From a virus (Duplodnaviria; Heunggongvirae; Uroviricota; Caudoviricetes), in IMG/VR virus record IMGVR_UViG_2690316115_000007, positions 1-4,929 of that record: a stretch of DNA of 4,929 nt; one strand, 5' to 3'. Both the position numbers and the translations under genes were made by a program. Positions 1-4,929 of the stretch are shown one piece after another; positions within the stretch are counted from its first letter, which is position 1, and every line of letters begins with the position of its first letter. The notes under the pieces are model-generated. The model was given only the letters and a program-made list of their open reading frames with translations. It was not told the DNA's origin and did not search any database.

Positions 1-219
1 CTCCTCCGGCAGAAGCAGAAAAAGCTTATTATGCTTCCATCGGAAACGATGATCTGGCAGCCTGAGTTCACAGATAAAACACTCTCCAGGAAACCCGGGG
101 CGGTTCAATTTCCCTGTCACCTGGTACATTCACTGCATAGCAATACTCCACCTTCGCTTTTCCACCCGGTACAGGAAGCGCAATCAGTTGCGAGCGACGG
201 TAGTGTGTTGTTAAACTGT

Positions 220-804
220 TCATGCGTTAGTTTCTCCACAACCAGAAGCAATCGACGCCACGACGCCCGGAGCTGCACACTCGCGGGCGTTACTCTTTTC
301 CGGCGCACAAAAAACACGAAATAACAGTGTTAAATGCTCCTGCCACTTCGCCATTACTTGGTAGCTGTTCTCTTCGATTTGCTCACGCTCAGCCTGGTCA
401 ATAACTCCATCAGCAGTTGCCTTGCGTAAGTACTGGGAATGCTTGCCAATCCATTCTATTGACTCCATCAGCCGCTGATTAATGTCACCATTGTCAATGT
501 CATCAATGACCACCAGCGGCACAAACACCCCATTACTACGACGGGCTATTGCATCTGTTACATGCCTGGTACCACTGGCATCCTGTAAAACCATGGCCCA
601 CTCAAGTGGAAAAATTTGATCCCCACCGCTACGCAGTCTGTTATGCAATTGATCTTTTGCTGGGGTGATATCATCAGATTTATACAAACCAAGAATTTCT
701 GCTGCTTCCTCATAGCCATGAGGTAAATCAGCAATCGTTCTTCGTATTGCTGCCACCAGCCATGCTGGTTGTTTATCAACTTTCCATTCAGGTTCTTTAC
801 CCAC
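220..804 (-). CDS. CII-position regulatory protein (CII/CP76-like or YdaT-like, tentative), 194 aa, GTG start
   Basis: Longest minus-strand ORF directly downstream of cro (27-nt gap). GTG start at 802-804 is preceded by GAGGAA (revcomp of 812-817) at 6-nt spacing. By eye, the N-terminal segment (AAEILGL...PLEWAMV) resembles the helix-turn-helix region of lambda CII (AEAVGV...LEWGVV). At 194 aa it is about twice the size of lambda CII, so the family assignment is tentative. The 3' end and the region 1-220 are not confidently resolved. Confidence 0.45.
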
Positions 805-831
805 GGTTAATTCCTCATTTCTGTGGTGTTT

Positions 832-1029
832 TTATGCCGCAGCACTGTTAGTCTTTTGATATAAAGACACGTCAACTTTCAGTTTCCCGTTAGTAATTTT
901 TTCTAACTGGTACGCTCGGCCTTCAGGAATAATCTCAGGCCACTCTGAAACAGACGGATGCTTAATACCTAGGGCTTCGGCGGTTTTACAAACTCCGCCG
1001 AAATAATTAATCACGTCGGATTTCCGCAT
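832..1029 (-). CDS. cro: Cro-like small HTH repressor (Cro/YdaS-type), 65 aa
   Basis: ATG at 1027-1029 (minus strand) preceded by GGGAGA (revcomp of 1035-1040) at 5-nt spacing. Transcribed divergently from the repressor gene across the operator region. The protein motif FGG..KTAEALGI..PSVSEW parallels lambda Cro (FGQTKTAKDLGV.QSAINKA), and the short Ala-rich C-terminus is similar. Size and position are typical of cro. Confidence 0.75.
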   Translation of the reverse strand: MRKSDVINYFGGVCKTAEALGIKHPSVSEWPEIIPEGRAYQLEKITNGKLKVDVSLYQKTNSAAA

Positions 1030-1060
1030 TTCTGTCTCCCGTTAAATTACGTTAAGCAGA

Positions 1061-1090
1061 AATGTAGGATATCCAACATGCCAATGTCAA
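1061..1090 (-). promoter_or_regulatory. PR-like promoter driving cro: -35 TTGACA (revcomp of 1085-1090), 18-nt spacer, -10 TACATT (revcomp of 1061-1066)
   Basis: Consensus -35 hexamer and a 4/6 -10 hexamer on the minus strand, about 30 nt upstream of the cro SD. The -10 and spacer lie inside operator O1. The same -35/spacer/-10 arrangement recurs at 1865-1894 on the plus strand. Confidence 0.55.
1062..1079. promoter_or_regulatory. Operator O1: 18-bp near-palindrome ATGTAGGATATCCAACAT
   Basis: Imperfect inverted repeat (half-sites ATGTAGGAT / ATGTTGGAT, 8 of 9 symmetric). Overlaps the -10 of the PR-like promoter. Its exact reverse complement occurs at 1876-1893. Confidence 0.65.
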
Positions 1091-1126
1091 GAATCCTACA
1101 TGGGCATGTGGTAGGATTGCCTACAT
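1084..1126. promoter_or_regulatory. Operator-like sites O2 (about 1084-1101, good half-site ATCCTACAT at 1093-1101) and O3 (1109-1126, tgGTAGGAT/TGCCTACAT)
   Basis: Reiterated ATGTAGGAT/ATCCTACAT-type half-sites. Centre-to-centre spacings from O1 are about 22 and 47 bp, resembling the tripartite lambda OR layout. O3 overlaps the repressor start codon (CCTACATG). A weak rightward -10-like TAGGAT at 1112-1117 could serve as a PRM-like promoter. Confidence 0.45.
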
Positions 1127-1778
1127 GATGAACATGAGTGATCGTATTCGCCAAAGGCGAAAAGAACTGAACCTGACACAACAAGCACTGGCTGATTTGA
1201 CTGGTGTGAACCGTGTCACGGTTACTGGATGGGAAAAGGACGACTACCAACCAAATGGAGCCAACCTTCAAGCCCTAGCCAACGCACTTAAATGCGATCC
1301 TCTGTGGCTTGTTAGCGGAAAAGGCTCGCCTGAACCAAAGATAAATCTAAAACCTGAAATATTCGCAGTTAAAAAAGTCCCCCTAATCTCGTGGGTTCAG
1401 GCGGGTTCATGGACAATGACGGAGCCTGGTGTCAGGAAAGAAGATGCTGAAGAGTGGGTTTATACTACCGCCCTTGTATCAGAAATGGCATTTGCACTAC
1501 GGGTCCGTGGTGATTCAATGACCAATCCCCTCGGCTCACCATCGATACCAGAAGGTTCTATCGTTATCGTAGAGCCAGATATTATTGATACAGAGTGTAT
1601 TAACGGAAAAATCGTTGTTGCCCATATCAATGGTGGGCAAGAAGCGACACTCAAAAAATTTGTTGAGGACTGGCCGAACAGGTATCTCGTCCCACTAAAT
1701 CCTAACTATAAAACTATTGAATGCGGTGAGAACTGCAGAATAGTTGGTCTTGTCAAACAAGTAATAATGGATTTTTGA
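1125..1778 (+). CDS. cI: Lambda-CI-like prophage repressor: N-terminal XRE-type HTH plus C-terminal LexA/S24 autopeptidase domain, 217 aa
   Basis: HTH segment LTQQALADLTGVNRVTVTGWE. Ala-Gly cleavage-site motif WVQA|GSW (codons 93-94, nt 1401-1406) matching lambda VQAGMF. Catalytic Ser in RVRGDSM (nt 1515-1517) and a Lys pair in ATLKKF. C-terminus LNPNYKTIECGENCRIVGLV closely parallels lambda CI [20 protein letters not shown]. Three in-frame ATGs (1125, 1128, 1134) make the exact start uncertain. Confidence 0.9.
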   Translation: MMNMSDRIRQRRKELNLTQQALADLTGVNRVTVTGWEKDDYQPNGANLQALANALKCDPLWLVSGKGSPEPKINLKPEIFAVKKVPLISWVQAGSWTMTEPGVRKEDAEEWVYTTALVSEMAFALRVRGDSMTNPLGSPSIPEGSIVIVEPDIIDTECINGKIVVAHINGGQEATLKKFVEDWPNRYLVPLNPNYKTIECGENCRIVGLVKQVIMDF

Positions 1779-1798
1779 CACATCTTCCTCACTATCGC

Positions 1799-1824
1799 AA
1801 AACCGGGGTATCCCCGGTTTTTTT
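1799..1824. terminator. Bidirectional rho-independent terminator downstream of the repressor gene
   Basis: Perfect hairpin CCGGGG-tat-CCCCGG (1803-1817), extended by AAAA (1799-1802) pairing with TTTT (1818-1821) and followed by a run of 7 T (1818-1824). The upstream A-run gives terminator character on the minus strand as well. Confidence 0.7.
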
Positions 1825-1840
1825 ATGAGCCTATCTTTTT

Positions 1841-1894
1841 ATGTAGGATAACCAACATAAACTCTTGACACTCACATGTTGGATATCCTACATT
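1841..1894 (+). promoter_or_regulatory. PL-like early promoter with two operators: OL-a ATGTAGGATAACCAACAT (1841-1858), -35 TTGACA (1865-1870), OL-b ATGTTGGATATCCTACAT (1876-1893), -10 TACATT (1889-1894)
   Basis: Consensus -35, 18-nt spacer and a 4/6 -10, identical in architecture to the cro promoter. OL-b is the exact reverse complement of O1 and overlaps the spacer and -10. OL-a is a 17/18 match to O1. Confidence 0.6.
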
Positions 1895-2088
1895 TGTTTT
1901 TAGAGTTGTGGTGAATGCGCAGGCTGATGCGCGAAAGACATTGCAGCTATTGCGGAAAAGAGCTGTTCGGCGGGGCAATTAAACGCCCGTGAGAGTCTGA
2001 AATAACCGCAAGCCGGAGATCAGCACCGGTCACCACAACAGCCACTGCTTTGGCGGTACCAGTTTGTACACTTGCTTCCGGCTGGTAC

Positions 2089-2100
2089 CGCTCTTTTTAC
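2089..2100 (+). promoter_or_regulatory. boxA-like motif CGCTCTTTTTAC in the early leader
   Basis: Resembles the lambda nut boxA core CGCTCTTA and the rrn boxA TGCTCTTTAACAA. Sits about 190 nt downstream of the PL-like promoter and immediately 5' of a long hairpin. Confidence 0.3.
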
Positions 2101-2187
2101 AAAACAGAGAAGAGCATCACCGGACGACGGGCTCATAACCCAATCCATCCGGGCGGCTGCCACCGCAGGTGTTCTTCTCTGTTTTGT
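2099..2187 (+). other. Large leader RNA hairpin: 13-bp perfect inverted repeat AAAACAGAGAAGA (2101-2113) / TCTTCTCTGTTTT (2173-2185), extendable to about 20 bp with G-U pairs, enclosing about 50-60 nt of GC-rich sequence
   Basis: Inverted repeat read directly from the sequence. The 3' arm ends in UUUU followed by GUGG. Candidate nut/put-like antitermination element or a tL-type terminator/attenuator between the promoter and the first gene. Confidence 0.4.
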
Positions 2188-2235
2188 GGAGAAACCAACC
2201 GACCTTACAGGGTCGATATGATGAGGAGCAGCAAA

Positions 2236-2598
2236 ATGGCTAGCGAACGCAGTACTGATGTGCAGGCATTTATCGGGGAGCTGGACGGCGGCGTATTTGA
2301 AACCAAAATCGGCGCTGTTCTCAGTGAAGTCGCTTCCGGTGTGATGAACACGAAAACCAAAGGTAAGGTCTCGCTCAACCTGGAAATCGAACCGTTTGAT
2401 GAGAACCGTGTGAAAATCAAACACAAACTCTCATATGTTCGCCCGACTAACCGCGGGAAAATTTCTGAAGAAGACACCACCGAAACGCCGATGTATGTCA
2501 ATCGCGGTGGTCGCCTGACTATTCTGCAGGAAGACCAGGGACAATTACTGACTCTTGCCGGTGAACCTGACGGAAAACTCCGCGCAGCAGGTCATTAA
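2236..2598 (+). CDS. yfdP: YfdP-like prophage protein of unknown function, 120 aa
   Basis: ATG at 2236 preceded by the strong SD GAGGAG (2223-2228) at 7-nt spacing. The upstream in-frame extension to 2050 has no SD and overlaps the structured leader. The 120-aa length and its position immediately before the 274-aa and 178-aa genes match my recollection of yfdP-yfdQ-yfdR in K-12 CPS-53. In-frame ATGs at 2218 and 2221 are alternative starts. Confidence 0.7.
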   Translation: MASERSTDVQAFIGELDGGVFETKIGAVLSEVASGVMNTKTKGKVSLNLEIEPFDENRVKIKHKLSYVRPTNRGKISEEDTTETPMYVNRGGRLTILQEDQGQLLTLAGEPDGKLRAAGH

Positions 2599-2663
2599 TA
2601 TCGTTCTTAATTAACTGATTATTTATCTCATCACTGAATATCTTTATATAGTGAGGACTTATT

Positions 2664-3488
2664 ATGTCTCAGAACTTAGACGCAACCGCAATTAATCAAA
2701 TCCATGCTCTTATTTCTGCTCAGGGTGTTAATGAAATTATCAGTAATATTGGTGCCGATGCTGTGGCATTGCCTGAGAATTTCCGCATTCATGATCTGGA
2801 AAAATTTAATTTAAATCGCTTCCGTTTCCGTGGCGCGCTTTCCACTGCCAGCATCGATGATTTTACCCGTTATTCTAAAGATCTTGCAGATGAAGGCACC
2901 CGCTGCTTTATCGATGCTGATAATATGCGTGCCGTCAGTGTGCTTAACCTGGGTACTATTGATGAACCAGGTCACGCAGATAACACCGCCACTCTCAAAC
3001 TGAAAAAGACAGCACCGTTCTCTGCTCTGTTGTCTGTTAACGGCGAGCGTAACTCCCAGAAGTCACTGGCAGAATGGATTGAAGACTGGGCCGACTACCT
3101 TGTGGGCTTTGATGCTAATGGTGACGCCATTCAGGCAACCAAAGCGGCTGCGGCGATCCGTAAAATCACAATTGAAGCGAACCAGACCGCTGATTTTGAA
3201 GATAATGACTTCAGCGGCAAACGCTCCCTGATGGAGTCTGTCGAAGCGAAGACCAAAGACATTATGCCAGTGGCATTTGAATTTAAATGCGTTCCGTTTG
3301 AAGGTCTGAAAGAACGTCCATTTAAATTACGCCTCAGCATTATCACTGGCGATCGTCCTGTACTGGTTCTGCGCATTATTCAGCTGGAAGCAGTGCAGGA
3401 AGAAATGGCTAACGAATTTCGTGATCTGCTTGTTGAGAAATTCAAAGACAGCAAAGTAGAAACCTTTATTGGTACTTTCACCGCCTGA
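2664..3488 (+). CDS. yfdQ: YfdQ-like protein (DUF2303-type as recalled), 274 aa, function unknown
   Basis: ATG at 2664 with SD GAGGA (2653-2657) at 6-nt spacing. Clean 274-aa ORF. Length and synteny match my recollection of K-12 YfdQ. No catalytic motif recognised by eye. Confidence 0.75.
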
Positions 3489-3500
3489 TTTCATTACTGC

Positions 3501-3522
3501 AAATGCCCCTGCGGGGGCATTT
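3501..3522. other. Stem-loop AAATGCCCC-tgcg-GGGGCATTT immediately after yfdQ; possible weak intrinsic terminator or attenuator
   Basis: 9-bp perfect stem with a 4-nt loop, 13 nt after the yfdQ stop codon. Only a short U-tract follows (UUUAU), so complete termination is doubtful. Confidence 0.4.
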
Positions 3523-3616
3523 ATGGAAACGTAATTAACTCAATAATCGCCGGATGGTGCGGGATTCCTTTTACCCGAATTCAGCGCGGTGCAGCGCATA
3601 TAAAGTGGAGAACGAA

Positions 3617-4153
3617 ATGTCATTTATTAAAACTTTTTCCGGGAAGCATTTTTATTATGACAAGATAAATAAAGACGACATCGTGATTAACGATATCGCG
3701 GTTTCCCTTTCAAATATCTGTCGCTTTGCAGGACATCTTTCACACTTCTACAGTGTCGCCCAGCATGCGGTGCTTTGCCGCCAGCTGGTGCCGCAGGAAT
3801 TTGCTTTTGAAGCGTTAATGCATGATGCAACAGAAGCGTATTGCCAGGACATCCCCGCACCACTGAAACGACTTCTTCCTGACTATAAACGGATGGAGGA
3901 AAAAATAGACGCCGTAATCCGTGAGAAATACGGGTTACCTCCTGTTATGAGCACGCCAGTGAAATATGCCGATCTCATCATGCTGGCAACCGAACGCCGC
4001 GATCTCGGACTTGATGATGGCTCTTTCTGGCCTGTATTGGAAGGTATCCCGGCAACAGAGATGTTCAAAGTGATTCCACTGGCACCGGGCCATGCCTACG
4101 GGATGTTTATGGAACGCTTCAACGAGTTATCGGAATTACGCAAATGTGCATAA
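3617..4153 (+). CDS. yfdR: HD-domain phosphohydrolase, YfdR-like (5'-deoxynucleotidase family), 178 aa
   Basis: ATG at 3617 with SD GGAG (3607-3610) at 6-nt spacing. The HD signature is in LMHDATEAY (His-Asp at nt 3821-3826). The 178-aa length and position match my recollection of K-12 YfdR. The longer 199-aa ORF from 3554 lacks an SD. Confidence 0.8.
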   Translation: MSFIKTFSGKHFYYDKINKDDIVINDIAVSLSNICRFAGHLSHFYSVAQHAVLCRQLVPQEFAFEALMHDATEAYCQDIPAPLKRLLPDYKRMEEKIDAVIREKYGLPPVMSTPVKYADLIMLATERRDLGLDDGSFWPVLEGIPATEMFKVIPLAPGHAYGMFMERFNELSELRKCA

Positions 4154-4869
4154 CTCATGTAGTTAGTTTTTCTGGCGGGAGAACATCTGCATATCTTGTT
4201 CACCTGATGGAAGAACAAAGAAAGGCTGGCAATAACGTCTGCTACACCTTTATGGATACCGGTTGCGAACATCCGCTGACATACCGCTTTATTCGGGAGG
4301 TTGTGAAGTTCTGGGGCATACCGCTAACTGTGTTGCAGGTCGATATAAATCCAGAGCTTGGGCAGCCAAATGGTTATACGGAATGGGAACCAAAGGATAT
4401 TCAGACGCGAATGCCGGTGCTTAAACCGTTTATGGACATGGTTAAAAAGTACGGTACGCCATACATCGGCGGCGCATTCTGTACTGACAGGCTAAAACTC
4501 ACCCCTTTCACGAAATATTGCGATGACCATTTTGGGCGAGGGAATTACATCACATGGCTGGGTATTCGTGCAGACGAACCCCGCAGGCTGAAACCGAAAC
4601 CGGGCGTCCGGTATCTCGCCGAACTGTCAGATTTTGATAAGTCGGATGTTATCCGGTGGTGGCGTAAACAGCCGTTCGATTTACTTATCCCTGAGCACCT
4701 CGGGAACTATGTTTTCTGCATCAAAAAGTCAACGCAAAAGCTGGGGCTTGCATGTAAGGACGAACCTGGCCTGATGCGGGTTTTTAATGAACTGGTTACA
4801 GGCCAACACGTCAGGGACGGTCTGAGGTGTACTGACAATAGCGGACACTACCATTTGTTCTTTTTTTAA
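4144..4869 (+). CDS. PAPS-reductase-family PP-loop protein (phosphoadenosine phosphosulfate reductase-like), 241 aa
   Basis: PP-loop-like motif VVSFSGGRTS (nt 4165-4188). FMDTGCEHPLTYRFIREV closely parallels E. coli CysH ILTDTGYLFPETYRFIDEL. The start codon overlaps the yfdR stop (ATGTGCATAA, 4144-4153), indicating translational coupling. Confidence 0.8.
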   Translation: MCITHVVSFSGGRTSAYLVHLMEEQRKAGNNVCYTFMDTGCEHPLTYRFIREVVKFWGIPLTVLQVDINPELGQPNGYTEWEPKDIQTRMPVLKPFMDMVKKYGTPYIGGAFCTDRLKLTPFTKYCDDHFGRGNYITWLGIRADEPRRLKPKPGVRYLAELSDFDKSDVIRWWRKQPFDLLIPEHLGNYVFCIKKSTQKLGLACKDEPGLMRVFNELVTGQHVRDGLRCTDNSGHYHLFFF

Positions 4870-4929
4870 GCAGCTATCTGATGATATTTTTCCCTGAAGG
4901 CTGCCGGGGAGATATTCCCCAGACGAGAG

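Follow-up and report, generated by a model that had tools for sequence, protein, structure and literature searches.

A conserved tRNA-like RNA module in the early-left leader of lambdoid prophages, a candidate mimic of the initiator anticodon arm

The DNA analyzed here, called the window, is a stretch of 4,929 nucleotides (nt) from a virus of the Caudoviricetes (positions 1 to 4,929 of IMG/VR record IMGVR_UViG_2690316115_000007), and it is the immunity region of a lambdoid Escherichia coli prophage of the CPS-53 / SfV / mEp460 type. Our subject is an RNA element at positions 2099-2187, in the leader of the PL-like transcript. An earlier note, made from the sequence alone, had described positions 2089-2187 as a boxA-like motif followed by a very long hairpin, and had offered as possible functions a nut-like site, a put-like antiterminator RNA, or a terminator or attenuator.

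The genes and leader features of the window are listed in Table 1. Downstream of the repressor gene, an inverted repeat (1799-1808 / 1812-1821) with a T-run can be read from the sequence as a hairpin of the terminator type. The PL-like promoter that follows sits between two 18-nt operator copies (1841-1858 and 1876-1893) and mirrors the PR-like promoter at 1090-1061; the regions around the two promoters (1863-1902 and 1053-1092) are 40-nt inverted copies of one another (85%) and have the same -35 and -10 hexamers. Two more copies of the palindromic 17-18-nt operator lie at 1062-1079 and 1111-1127, making four in the window. Transcription from the PL-like promoter is predicted to start near 1901-1902, and the resulting leader of ~335 nt, up to the start codon at 2236, agrees with the estimate of ~340 nt given previously. 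The order of features in the leader is small RNA, terminator, structured module, and first gene, and nut or put sites are not supported. The site that nutL and N occupy in lambda is taken here by a small-RNA gene of ~197 nt with its own predicted terminator. Mosaic boundaries in other phages, at window positions 1902, 2031, and 2050, are compatible with transcription that starts near 1902 and with a separable module that occupies the sequence from about 2050 on.

Table 1. Genes and RNA features of the window, with positions on the strand analyzed
Feature	Position	Strand	Description
CII-like gene	804-220	-	
cro	1029-832	-	P22-type
Repressor gene	1125-1778	+	helix-turn-helix (HTH) and S24 peptidase
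PL-like sigma-70 promoter	1865-1894	+	TTGACA, 18-nt spacer, TACATT
Leader small RNA related to STnc100/PasD	1902-2098	+	multi-hairpin domain ending at predicted intrinsic terminator
Predicted intrinsic terminator of leader RNA	2052-2098	+	13-bp G+C-rich stem 2052-2064 / 2080-2092, then C, U5 (2094-2098)
Outer helix of element	2099-2118 (5' arm) / 2168-2187 (3' arm)	+	20 bp with G-U; from fold, inverted repeat, and alignment
Hairpin 1	2120-2152	+	basal stem 2120-2126 / 2146-2152 and tip GACGGGCUCAUAACCCAAUCCA (2126-2147)
Hairpin 2	2153-2166	+	GCGG-CUGCCA-CCGC; abuts hairpin 1; at the place of a T arm
Conserved GGAGAAAC	2188-2195	+	3' of outer helix
Small hairpin	2200-2215	+	just 5' of yfdP Shine-Dalgarno (GAGGAG 2223-2228) and start 2236
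yfdP	2236-2598	+	3' of repressor gene
yfdQ/DUF2303, yfdR, PAPS-reductase-like gene		+	follow yfdP in this order

The element is built on an inverted repeat (2099-2123 / 2163-2187). Its perfect 13-bp core (AAAACAGAGAAGA / UCUUCUCUGUUUU, at 2102-2114 / 2172-2184) had been recognized in the earlier note, as had its extension to about 20 bp with G-U pairs, and both are borne out. The minimum free energy (MFE) of 2089-2187 is -45.7 kcal/mol, compared with -23.5 +/- 3.1 kcal/mol in 200 shuffled sequences (z = -7.26), none of which folded as well. As modeled, the element is a three-way junction on a 20-bp helix, not a simple hairpin, and we have high confidence in this structural description. What had been taken for a GC-rich loop is in fact a pair of further hairpins. 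No nucleotides separate these two, and each of the other two junction strands is a single A residue. The tip of hairpin 1 consists of GGG (2129-2131), the 7-nt loop CUCAUAA (2132-2138, with CAU at 2134-2136), and CCC (2139-2141), whereas hairpin 2 varies among homologues in both sequence and length (14 to about 45 nt). The UUUU previously seen where the stem ends is present (2182-2185); it is paired with AAAA within the stem and is UUGU in most homologues, so it is not a terminator tail.

The outer helix can probably be extended. GGAGA (2188-2192), on its 3' side, can pair with the U-run of the leader terminator (2094-2098), and a 25-pair helix of this kind appears in the MFE fold of the whole leader. 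All PL-type copies have GUGGAGAA (or GUAUGGAGAA or GUACGGAGAA) at this place, and the two partners are invariant, hence without covariation. Because the 25-bp helix uses the terminator U-run, it could not form in the terminated small RNA and would be confined to read-through transcripts. At 20 bp, or 25 bp with the extension, the helix has the length of an RNase III substrate (a near-perfect helix of at least 20 bp). The small hairpin that precedes yfdP in the window is replaced in other genera by a different one (GGCGGUGGCAGCCGCC).

Instances of the element were collected by BLAST searches of phages and by pattern scans of viral contigs and genome contigs, and the loci collected contain 160. 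Prophages of at least a dozen enterobacterial genera carry the element, and its conservation there includes compensatory changes. Matches in genome contigs come from Escherichia/Shigella, Citrobacter, Enterobacter, Kosakonia, Mixta, Buttiauxella, Raoultella, Leclercia, Phytobacter, Pseudescherichia, Pseudocitrobacter, Erwinia, and Pantoea, and from one contig labelled Chryseobacterium; phage matches come also from Salmonella and Klebsiella. Shiga-toxin phages, Shigella serotype-converting phages, and Salmonella phages are among the carriers, which include SfV, SfII, SfIV, and ST64B. Window region 1780-2240 is matched in 2611 of 5426 complete E. coli genomes, a count that includes partial matches and is an upper bound for the element. 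Rfam has no family that matches 2099-2187, whether the whole window is searched at E values up to 10 or the leader is searched with permissive filters. About 60 pattern matches of the genome collection in unrelated phyla were judged to be chance, and all but two were dropped after their flanks were inspected. An intergenic hairpin in a metagenome-assembled genome (MAG) of the Acidobacteriaceae (L177 2559-2622, minus strand) has the same tip (CGACGGGCUCAUAACCCAAUCCG) on perfect stems of 10 and 9 bp. It matches our covariance model of the element (model R1) with 43 bits (E 7.5e-9), has no hairpin 2, and lies in an 8-kb locus in which no tRNA gene was found; this hairpin could represent an independent or distant member, or have arisen by chance.

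Two alignments were used to assess the proposed pairing, one of 26 distinct sequences of all classes (A1) and one of 24 distinct sequences from early operons (A2). In A1, pairing in the junction-proximal outer stem and in hairpin 1 amounts to 93.9%, compared with 28-48% for control structures in which the pairing partners were slid, and eight pairs change on both sides; four such pairs are in the basal stem of hairpin 1. In A2, the 20-bp outer helix is 94.8% paired. The earlier note had proposed covariation across homologous prophages as a check on the long stem, and the pairing is indeed conserved, with six pairs of the outer helix changing on both sides. The four basal pairs of hairpin 2 are 94.8% paired and two of them change on both sides; MAFFT could not align this hairpin between classes, and it was left unpaired in model R1 and assessed only within the early-operon class. 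While the surrounding helices change, the 22-nt tip of hairpin 1, GACGGGCUCAU(A/U)A(C/U)CCAAUCCA, is invariant in A1 and A2. This invariance is partly built in, because the search patterns fixed most of the tip; phage matches derived from BLAST, which are free of these patterns, carry the same tip. The changing helices and the frozen tip, both read from aligned sequences, indicate a folded RNA whose tip is probably read sequence-specifically. A mismatch in the middle of the outer helix (A2 columns 16/109, window 2109/2177, where the window has a G-C pair) is found in 16 of the 24 sequences, and this internal mismatch may be a conserved one by which RNase III cleavage is guided or limited.

The tip of hairpin 1 resembles part of a transfer RNA (tRNA). 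Its central 13 nt, GGGCUCAUAACCC (GGG-CUCAUAA-CCC), are identical to the anticodon stem-loop of the initiator tRNA (tRNAfMet) encoded by metY of E. coli K-12, and with the flanks 17 of 19 nt match. In the shared stem-loop, three G-C pairs close a 7-nt loop that holds the anticodon CAU, which is invariant in all aligned copies. Compared with the initiator tRNAs of metY and metZ, the element has an internal loop and a covarying stem of 5-7 bp in place of the two lower anticodon-stem pairs, and it lacks the D arm and T-loop. The element is not a canonical tRNA, the cloverleaf of which has a D arm, a T arm, and a T-loop. ARAGORN finds no tRNA in the window in bacterial, mitochondrial, or relaxed modes; it rejects the element, and its one call, a spurious armless "mtRNA-Met," concerns only the Pantoea copy. 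The Rfam tRNA model matches the four tRNAs that neighbor the copy in locus L125 and not the element itself, and the covariance model of the element does not match metY. Another reduced derivative of an initiator tRNA was seen in gammaproteobacterial MAG DTU037 (L201 3678-3745). This tRNAfMet-like gene keeps the acceptor stem, D arm, and anticodon arm, has lost the variable loop and T arm (...UCGGGCUCAUAACCCAAUCCUGCUCCCGCAACCA), and is followed by a terminator.

The same core occurs in a second genetic context. In Klebsiella and Raoultella phages, it forms the final unit of a tRNA array located between Q and the lysis genes. In 17 of 18 of these late-operon copies, a tRNA gene ends 4-6 nt upstream, and in 17 of 18 RCCA follows the outer stem, which is only 6 bp long (GGCCUG/CAGGCC). 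The whole unit measures about 71 nt, whereas the early-operon copy in the window has a stem of 20 bp and no CCA. The shortest natural form of the element is thus tRNA-sized, with an acceptor-like stem, a long arm of the anticodon type, a short hairpin at the place of the T arm, and no D arm. In one Klebsiella phage contig (L099), two copies occur, an early-operon one with loop CUCAUUA and a late-operon one with loop CUCAUAA and a G-U closing pair; no intact tRNA lies upstream of the latter, yet the GCGCCAGAUAAU spacer is kept.

Early-operon copies have a constant position. All 136 PL-type copies lie between the leader terminator and the first ORF. A location directly 3' of a terminator is seen again for the copies of Pantoea phage PA-1 and of a Pantoea MAG. 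The genes downstream differ and may be yfdP, an rdgC-like gene, or yfdR directly, and these differing junctions place the module boundary just after 2195. In several prophages among the viral contigs L097, L089, L075, L017, and L098, the module is joined right after GGAGAAACUAAC to a G+C hairpin (AUGCCCCUGCGGGGGCAU) that in the window (3507-3524) follows yfdQ, which means that these prophages lack yfdP-yfdQ; in other variants, the module is joined to the rdgC-like gene. YfdP, YfdQ, and YfdR are all absent from Klebsiella phage GZ7, which has only a late copy, and they were rejected as a common phage protein partner for this reason. We also considered and rejected a pseudoknot between the CUCAUAA loop and the start-codon region. 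Some lineages have complementarity of at least 5 nt (UAUGAG, AUGAG) and others have none, and the complementarity is partly due to Asn-Asp codons.

The RNA that precedes the element in the leader appears to be a gene of its own. Its domain is closed by a perfect 10-bp helix of GUUGUGGUGA and UCACCACAAC (1905-1914 / 2030-2039), and the fold of the whole leader has a z score of -5.6. The homologous leader of SfV matches the Rfam STnc100 model (RF02076) over the full 206 positions with 39.5 bits (E 3e-7), which is below the gathering score of 47. Its 3' end is at the same U-run, and the terminator of the model falls on this hairpin. For the ST64B homologue, the match is partial and likewise below the gathering score (35.1 bits), and the window copy gives no Rfam match even when the leader alone is searched with permissive filters. 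The closing helix (GUUGUGGUGAAUGCG ... CACCACAAC) and the terminator of the window copy can be aligned with those of SfV and ST64B, whereas the interior differs, and the relatedness of the window copy to STnc100 is proposed because both ends align. STnc100 and PasD are described as related prophage small RNAs whose function is not known; the copies described occupy late regions, close to Q, stx, and lysis genes, and not a place behind PL, and the parts of the two accounts cited here mention no tRNA-like element (bioRxiv 10.64898/2026.05.13.724894; PMC12370729). The likeness to STnc100 and PasD concerns only this neighboring leader RNA and not the long hairpin. In SfV, a moron, orf33 (98 amino acids, acidic, neither arginine-rich nor N-like, although at the position of N), and apparently also a small ORF in the opposite orientation lie between PL and the STnc100-like unit (L218 1789-2270), and the annotated "rho-independent terminator" at 2236-2268 may belong to the minus-strand gene.

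The predicted terminator of this leader RNA also accounts for the boxA-like motif. Its hairpin has a predicted free energy of -21.5 kcal/mol (z = -3.6). In all PL-type homologues, a G+C-rich hairpin of differing sequence abuts 5-7 U residues, with early-operon stems that differ on both arms (GGCGGUACCAG, GGCGGCAUCC, GGCGGCGUC, UGCCCAUC, GGCGGUUAUCC, and GUCGGCGUC), and a compact version in phage LLS is called by a terminator scan. Thus, 2052-2098 has the makeup of an intrinsic terminator, which is a G+C-rich hairpin directly before at least five U residues, and this makeup is conserved. The motif in question, CGCTCTTTTTAC (2089-2100), consists of the 3' arm of this terminator (to 2092) and the U-run. 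At the same position, homologues have GUCCUU, GCACUU, GACCUU, GCCCUU, or CACCUU, and GCUCUU is not kept. The lambda-type core CGCTCTTW is found once in the window and at least once in 34 of 200 shuffled sequences (17%), and the rrn-type boxA 13-mer has no ungapped match within three mismatches. Because the hairpin and U-run are kept across homologues while the GCUCUU core varies, 2089-2100 is read from the alignment as part of a predicted intrinsic terminator and not as a NusB/S10 site.

These observations bear on the functions that had been offered for the element. The sequence CGCTCTTT matches the core of the lambda boxA and is located early in a PL-like transcript, so that a lambda-type nut site could be envisaged, with 2089-2100 as boxA, the hairpin as boxB, and an N-like factor encoded elsewhere. 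However, the lack of conservation of the boxA core largely refutes this reading, the frequency of such matches among shuffled sequences and the overlap with the terminator arm and U-run add to the case against it, and a 20-bp helix with a junction is not the short (~5 bp) stem with a small purine-rich loop that makes up boxB. The remark that the stem is unusually long for a boxB was correct, as was the statement that no N-like gene is visible: none is found in the window or in the 12.5-kb locus L001, and neither YfdP nor the 25-codon ORF has a Pfam match. A factor encoded elsewhere in the prophage is conceivable, yet we consider a nut site most improbable. The same holds for the view that the long hairpin at 2099-2187 is itself an intrinsic terminator or attenuator. 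The hairpin is strong and in the window has UUUU on its 3' side, but these residues are paired within the A-U-rich base of the stem, homologues have UUGU followed by GGAGAA (UUGUGUGGAGAA), and a consensus terminator scan gives no call. The predicted terminator is the hairpin just upstream (2052-2092, with its U-run at 2094-2098), and it is this conserved structure, reaching into the first 10 nt of 2089-2187, that salvages part of the former suggestion of a terminator or attenuator. A protein-independent, put-like RNA that modifies the RNA polymerase from which it emerges, as HK022 put RNAs do through the beta' zinc-binding domain, is improbable as well, if less extremely so. The element shares with the put RNAs of HK022 a promoter-proximal position in a long lambdoid early operon without an N-like gene, and its two adjacent hairpins, with no spacer, loosely resemble put stems I and II (PMC9378689). 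Against this, there is no alignable sequence similarity to putL or putR, model R1 has no match in the HK022 immunity region (L130, L131), the hairpins are enclosed by a long helix as those of put are not, and the element lies after, not before, the only clear leader terminator. The core is also found in late operons controlled by Q, as a tRNA-array unit with an RCCA end.

The tRNA-like features invite two further explanations, and the long helix a third. A decaying tRNA pseudogene or recombination scar without a function of its own would explain the similarity to an anticodon arm, the RCCA tail, the location in tRNA arrays, and the rejection of the element by ARAGORN and the Rfam tRNA model. 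We give this explanation little credence, because decay would not preserve three helices by compensatory changes or leave a 22-nt tip invariant across many genera, and because the region is so frequent among E. coli genomes, even with some matches partial. A functional tRNA of reduced structure, aminoacylated with methionine and put to use by the ribosome, is suggested by the CAU anticodon in a canonical 7-nt loop with U33, and by late copies with G1-C72, G2-C71, and C3-G70, often with A73-CCA, which resemble the identity elements of tRNAMet. It is very unlikely, given an anticodon stem of only 3 bp, the missing D arm and T-loop, early-operon copies without a free acceptor end, and copies that have G73 or no CCA. 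The remaining alternative is a hairpin that would act purely in cis on processing or translation, in which cutting by RNase III would determine how stable or how well translated the message of the first PL gene is, with the conserved tip as a recognition feature for a protein or RNase. The constant location between terminator and first ORF in the 136 PL-type copies, the covarying helix of 20-25 bp, its incorporation of the terminator U-run and thus its existence only after read-through, and the presence of GGAGAAAC and a small hairpin before the Shine-Dalgarno sequence are what such a hairpin would lead one to expect. Nevertheless, the core occurs in late-operon tRNA arrays without the long helix and without an adjacent ORF, the downstream gene varies, and a plain RNase III site needs no 22 invariant nucleotides that copy a tRNA anticodon arm. 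As an account of the whole element, we regard cis control as somewhat unlikely; for the long helix by itself, an RNase III control hairpin acting in cis is still plausible.

The reading that we favor, tentatively and as possible rather than probable, is that the module gives rise to a trans-acting mimic of the initiator anticodon arm. The occurrence in two operon contexts, the varied downstream genes, and the lack of a common protein partner or conserved loop complementarity all favor action in trans over gene-specific control in cis. The arrangement of the leader shows that the module would be transcribed only by polymerases that pass the predicted leader terminator. On such read-through transcripts, RNase III would cut the long near-perfect helix, which would both part the leader RNA from the yfdP mRNA and free a tRNA-like RNA of ~65-75 nt. 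In the Klebsiella phages, tRNA-processing enzymes would release the same RNA as the last unit of the tRNA array. The freed RNA might then imitate the initiator anticodon arm, or serve as its decoy, and so act in trans on a host factor that is conserved across Enterobacterales. Candidate partners, in order of preference, are VapC-type nucleases that attack the tRNAfMet anticodon, the 30S P site with IF3, and methionyl-tRNA synthetase. The G-C pairs of the anticodon stem are the P-site signature of the initiator, and CAU is the main identity element for methionyl-tRNA synthetase. In Shigella and Salmonella, VapC cuts tRNAfMet once, within the anticodon stem-loop, and thereby inactivates it (PMC4705866). 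These two genera are the hosts of the carrier phages SfV, SfII, SfIV, and ST64B. A version with defined targets, namely that temperate enterobacterial phages make a mini tRNA-shaped RNA, lacking a D arm and released by RNase III or tRNA enzymes, as a decoy for toxins that cleave tRNAfMet or as a P-site/IF3 ligand by which translation initiation in lytic growth is biased, is unlikely as stated.

Several points weigh against trans-acting mimicry. RNase III cleavage is predicted from helix length alone, and the late-operon copies lack the long helix, which may therefore serve a separate purpose in cis. The anticodon-like stem has only three pairs before an internal loop and there is neither T-loop nor D arm, so that an L-shape is only putative. 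The late-operon copies have a G-U closing pair (GGG/UCC) and some copies have U for A 3' of the anticodon, which makes the mimicry imperfect. RCCA is limited to one closely related phage group and could be a relic of a tRNA ancestor. To our knowledge, no VapC system acts against phages, and the choice of partner is a guess among several.

The element can be compared with other structured RNAs of phages and mobile elements. As in YrlA (a Y RNA-like RNA) and the unexplained stable RNAs of the T4 tRNA cluster, the 5' and 3' ends pair into a long helix on which a tRNA-mimicking domain sits, the setting is a mobile element or phage, and one class of the element lies beside tRNA genes. YrlA, in contrast, mimics the acceptor, T, and D part of a tRNA and binds Ro, whereas the element mimics the anticodon arm of tRNAfMet. 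The RNase III hairpins of the lambda PL transcript, in the N leader and at sib, are likewise long near-perfect helices, and the element shares with them its location in an early-left leader before the first gene. The sib hairpin also forms only on transcripts that have passed a terminator. The lambda hairpins have no conserved tRNA-like junction, however, and the core of the element exists also without the long helix.

Literature searches aimed at this element returned no description of it. Mimicry of tRNA is a known theme, but for temperate-phage leaders and tRNA arrays we could find no account of a conserved RNA that mimics the initiator anticodon arm, and such a mimic appears to be undescribed. 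Phage tRNAs are now understood as counter-measures to tRNA-targeting immunity, and a mimic of the initiator anticodon arm would extend this idea to decoys. If true, trans-acting mimicry would represent an RNA-only device for counter-defense or host takeover of a kind not previously described, and the element would offer a directly testable means of finding what senses or attacks tRNAfMet in infected cells. Even if it proves to be an ordinary site of RNase III processing, the present analysis corrects how a common prophage leader is annotated.

The absence of the element from E. coli K-12 may explain why it has been overlooked. In the CPS-53 prophage of K-12 (L220 5247-5604), the repressor, PL, leader RNA, and tRNA-like module have all been lost. 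A deletion there takes out the entire leader as far as the ribosome-binding site of yfdP, and only the last ~30 nt before yfdP are shared with the window; the gap holds short tandem repeats (GACGGGTCAGATTTTGA...). A further observation concerns the repressor gene of the window. Its ORF begins (ATGATGAACATG, 1125) within or just past an operator, with no obvious Shine-Dalgarno sequence in 1111-1135. The maintenance transcript of the repressor may thus be leaderless, as is that of lambda cI, which would be relevant if a tRNAfMet-like RNA affects initiation.

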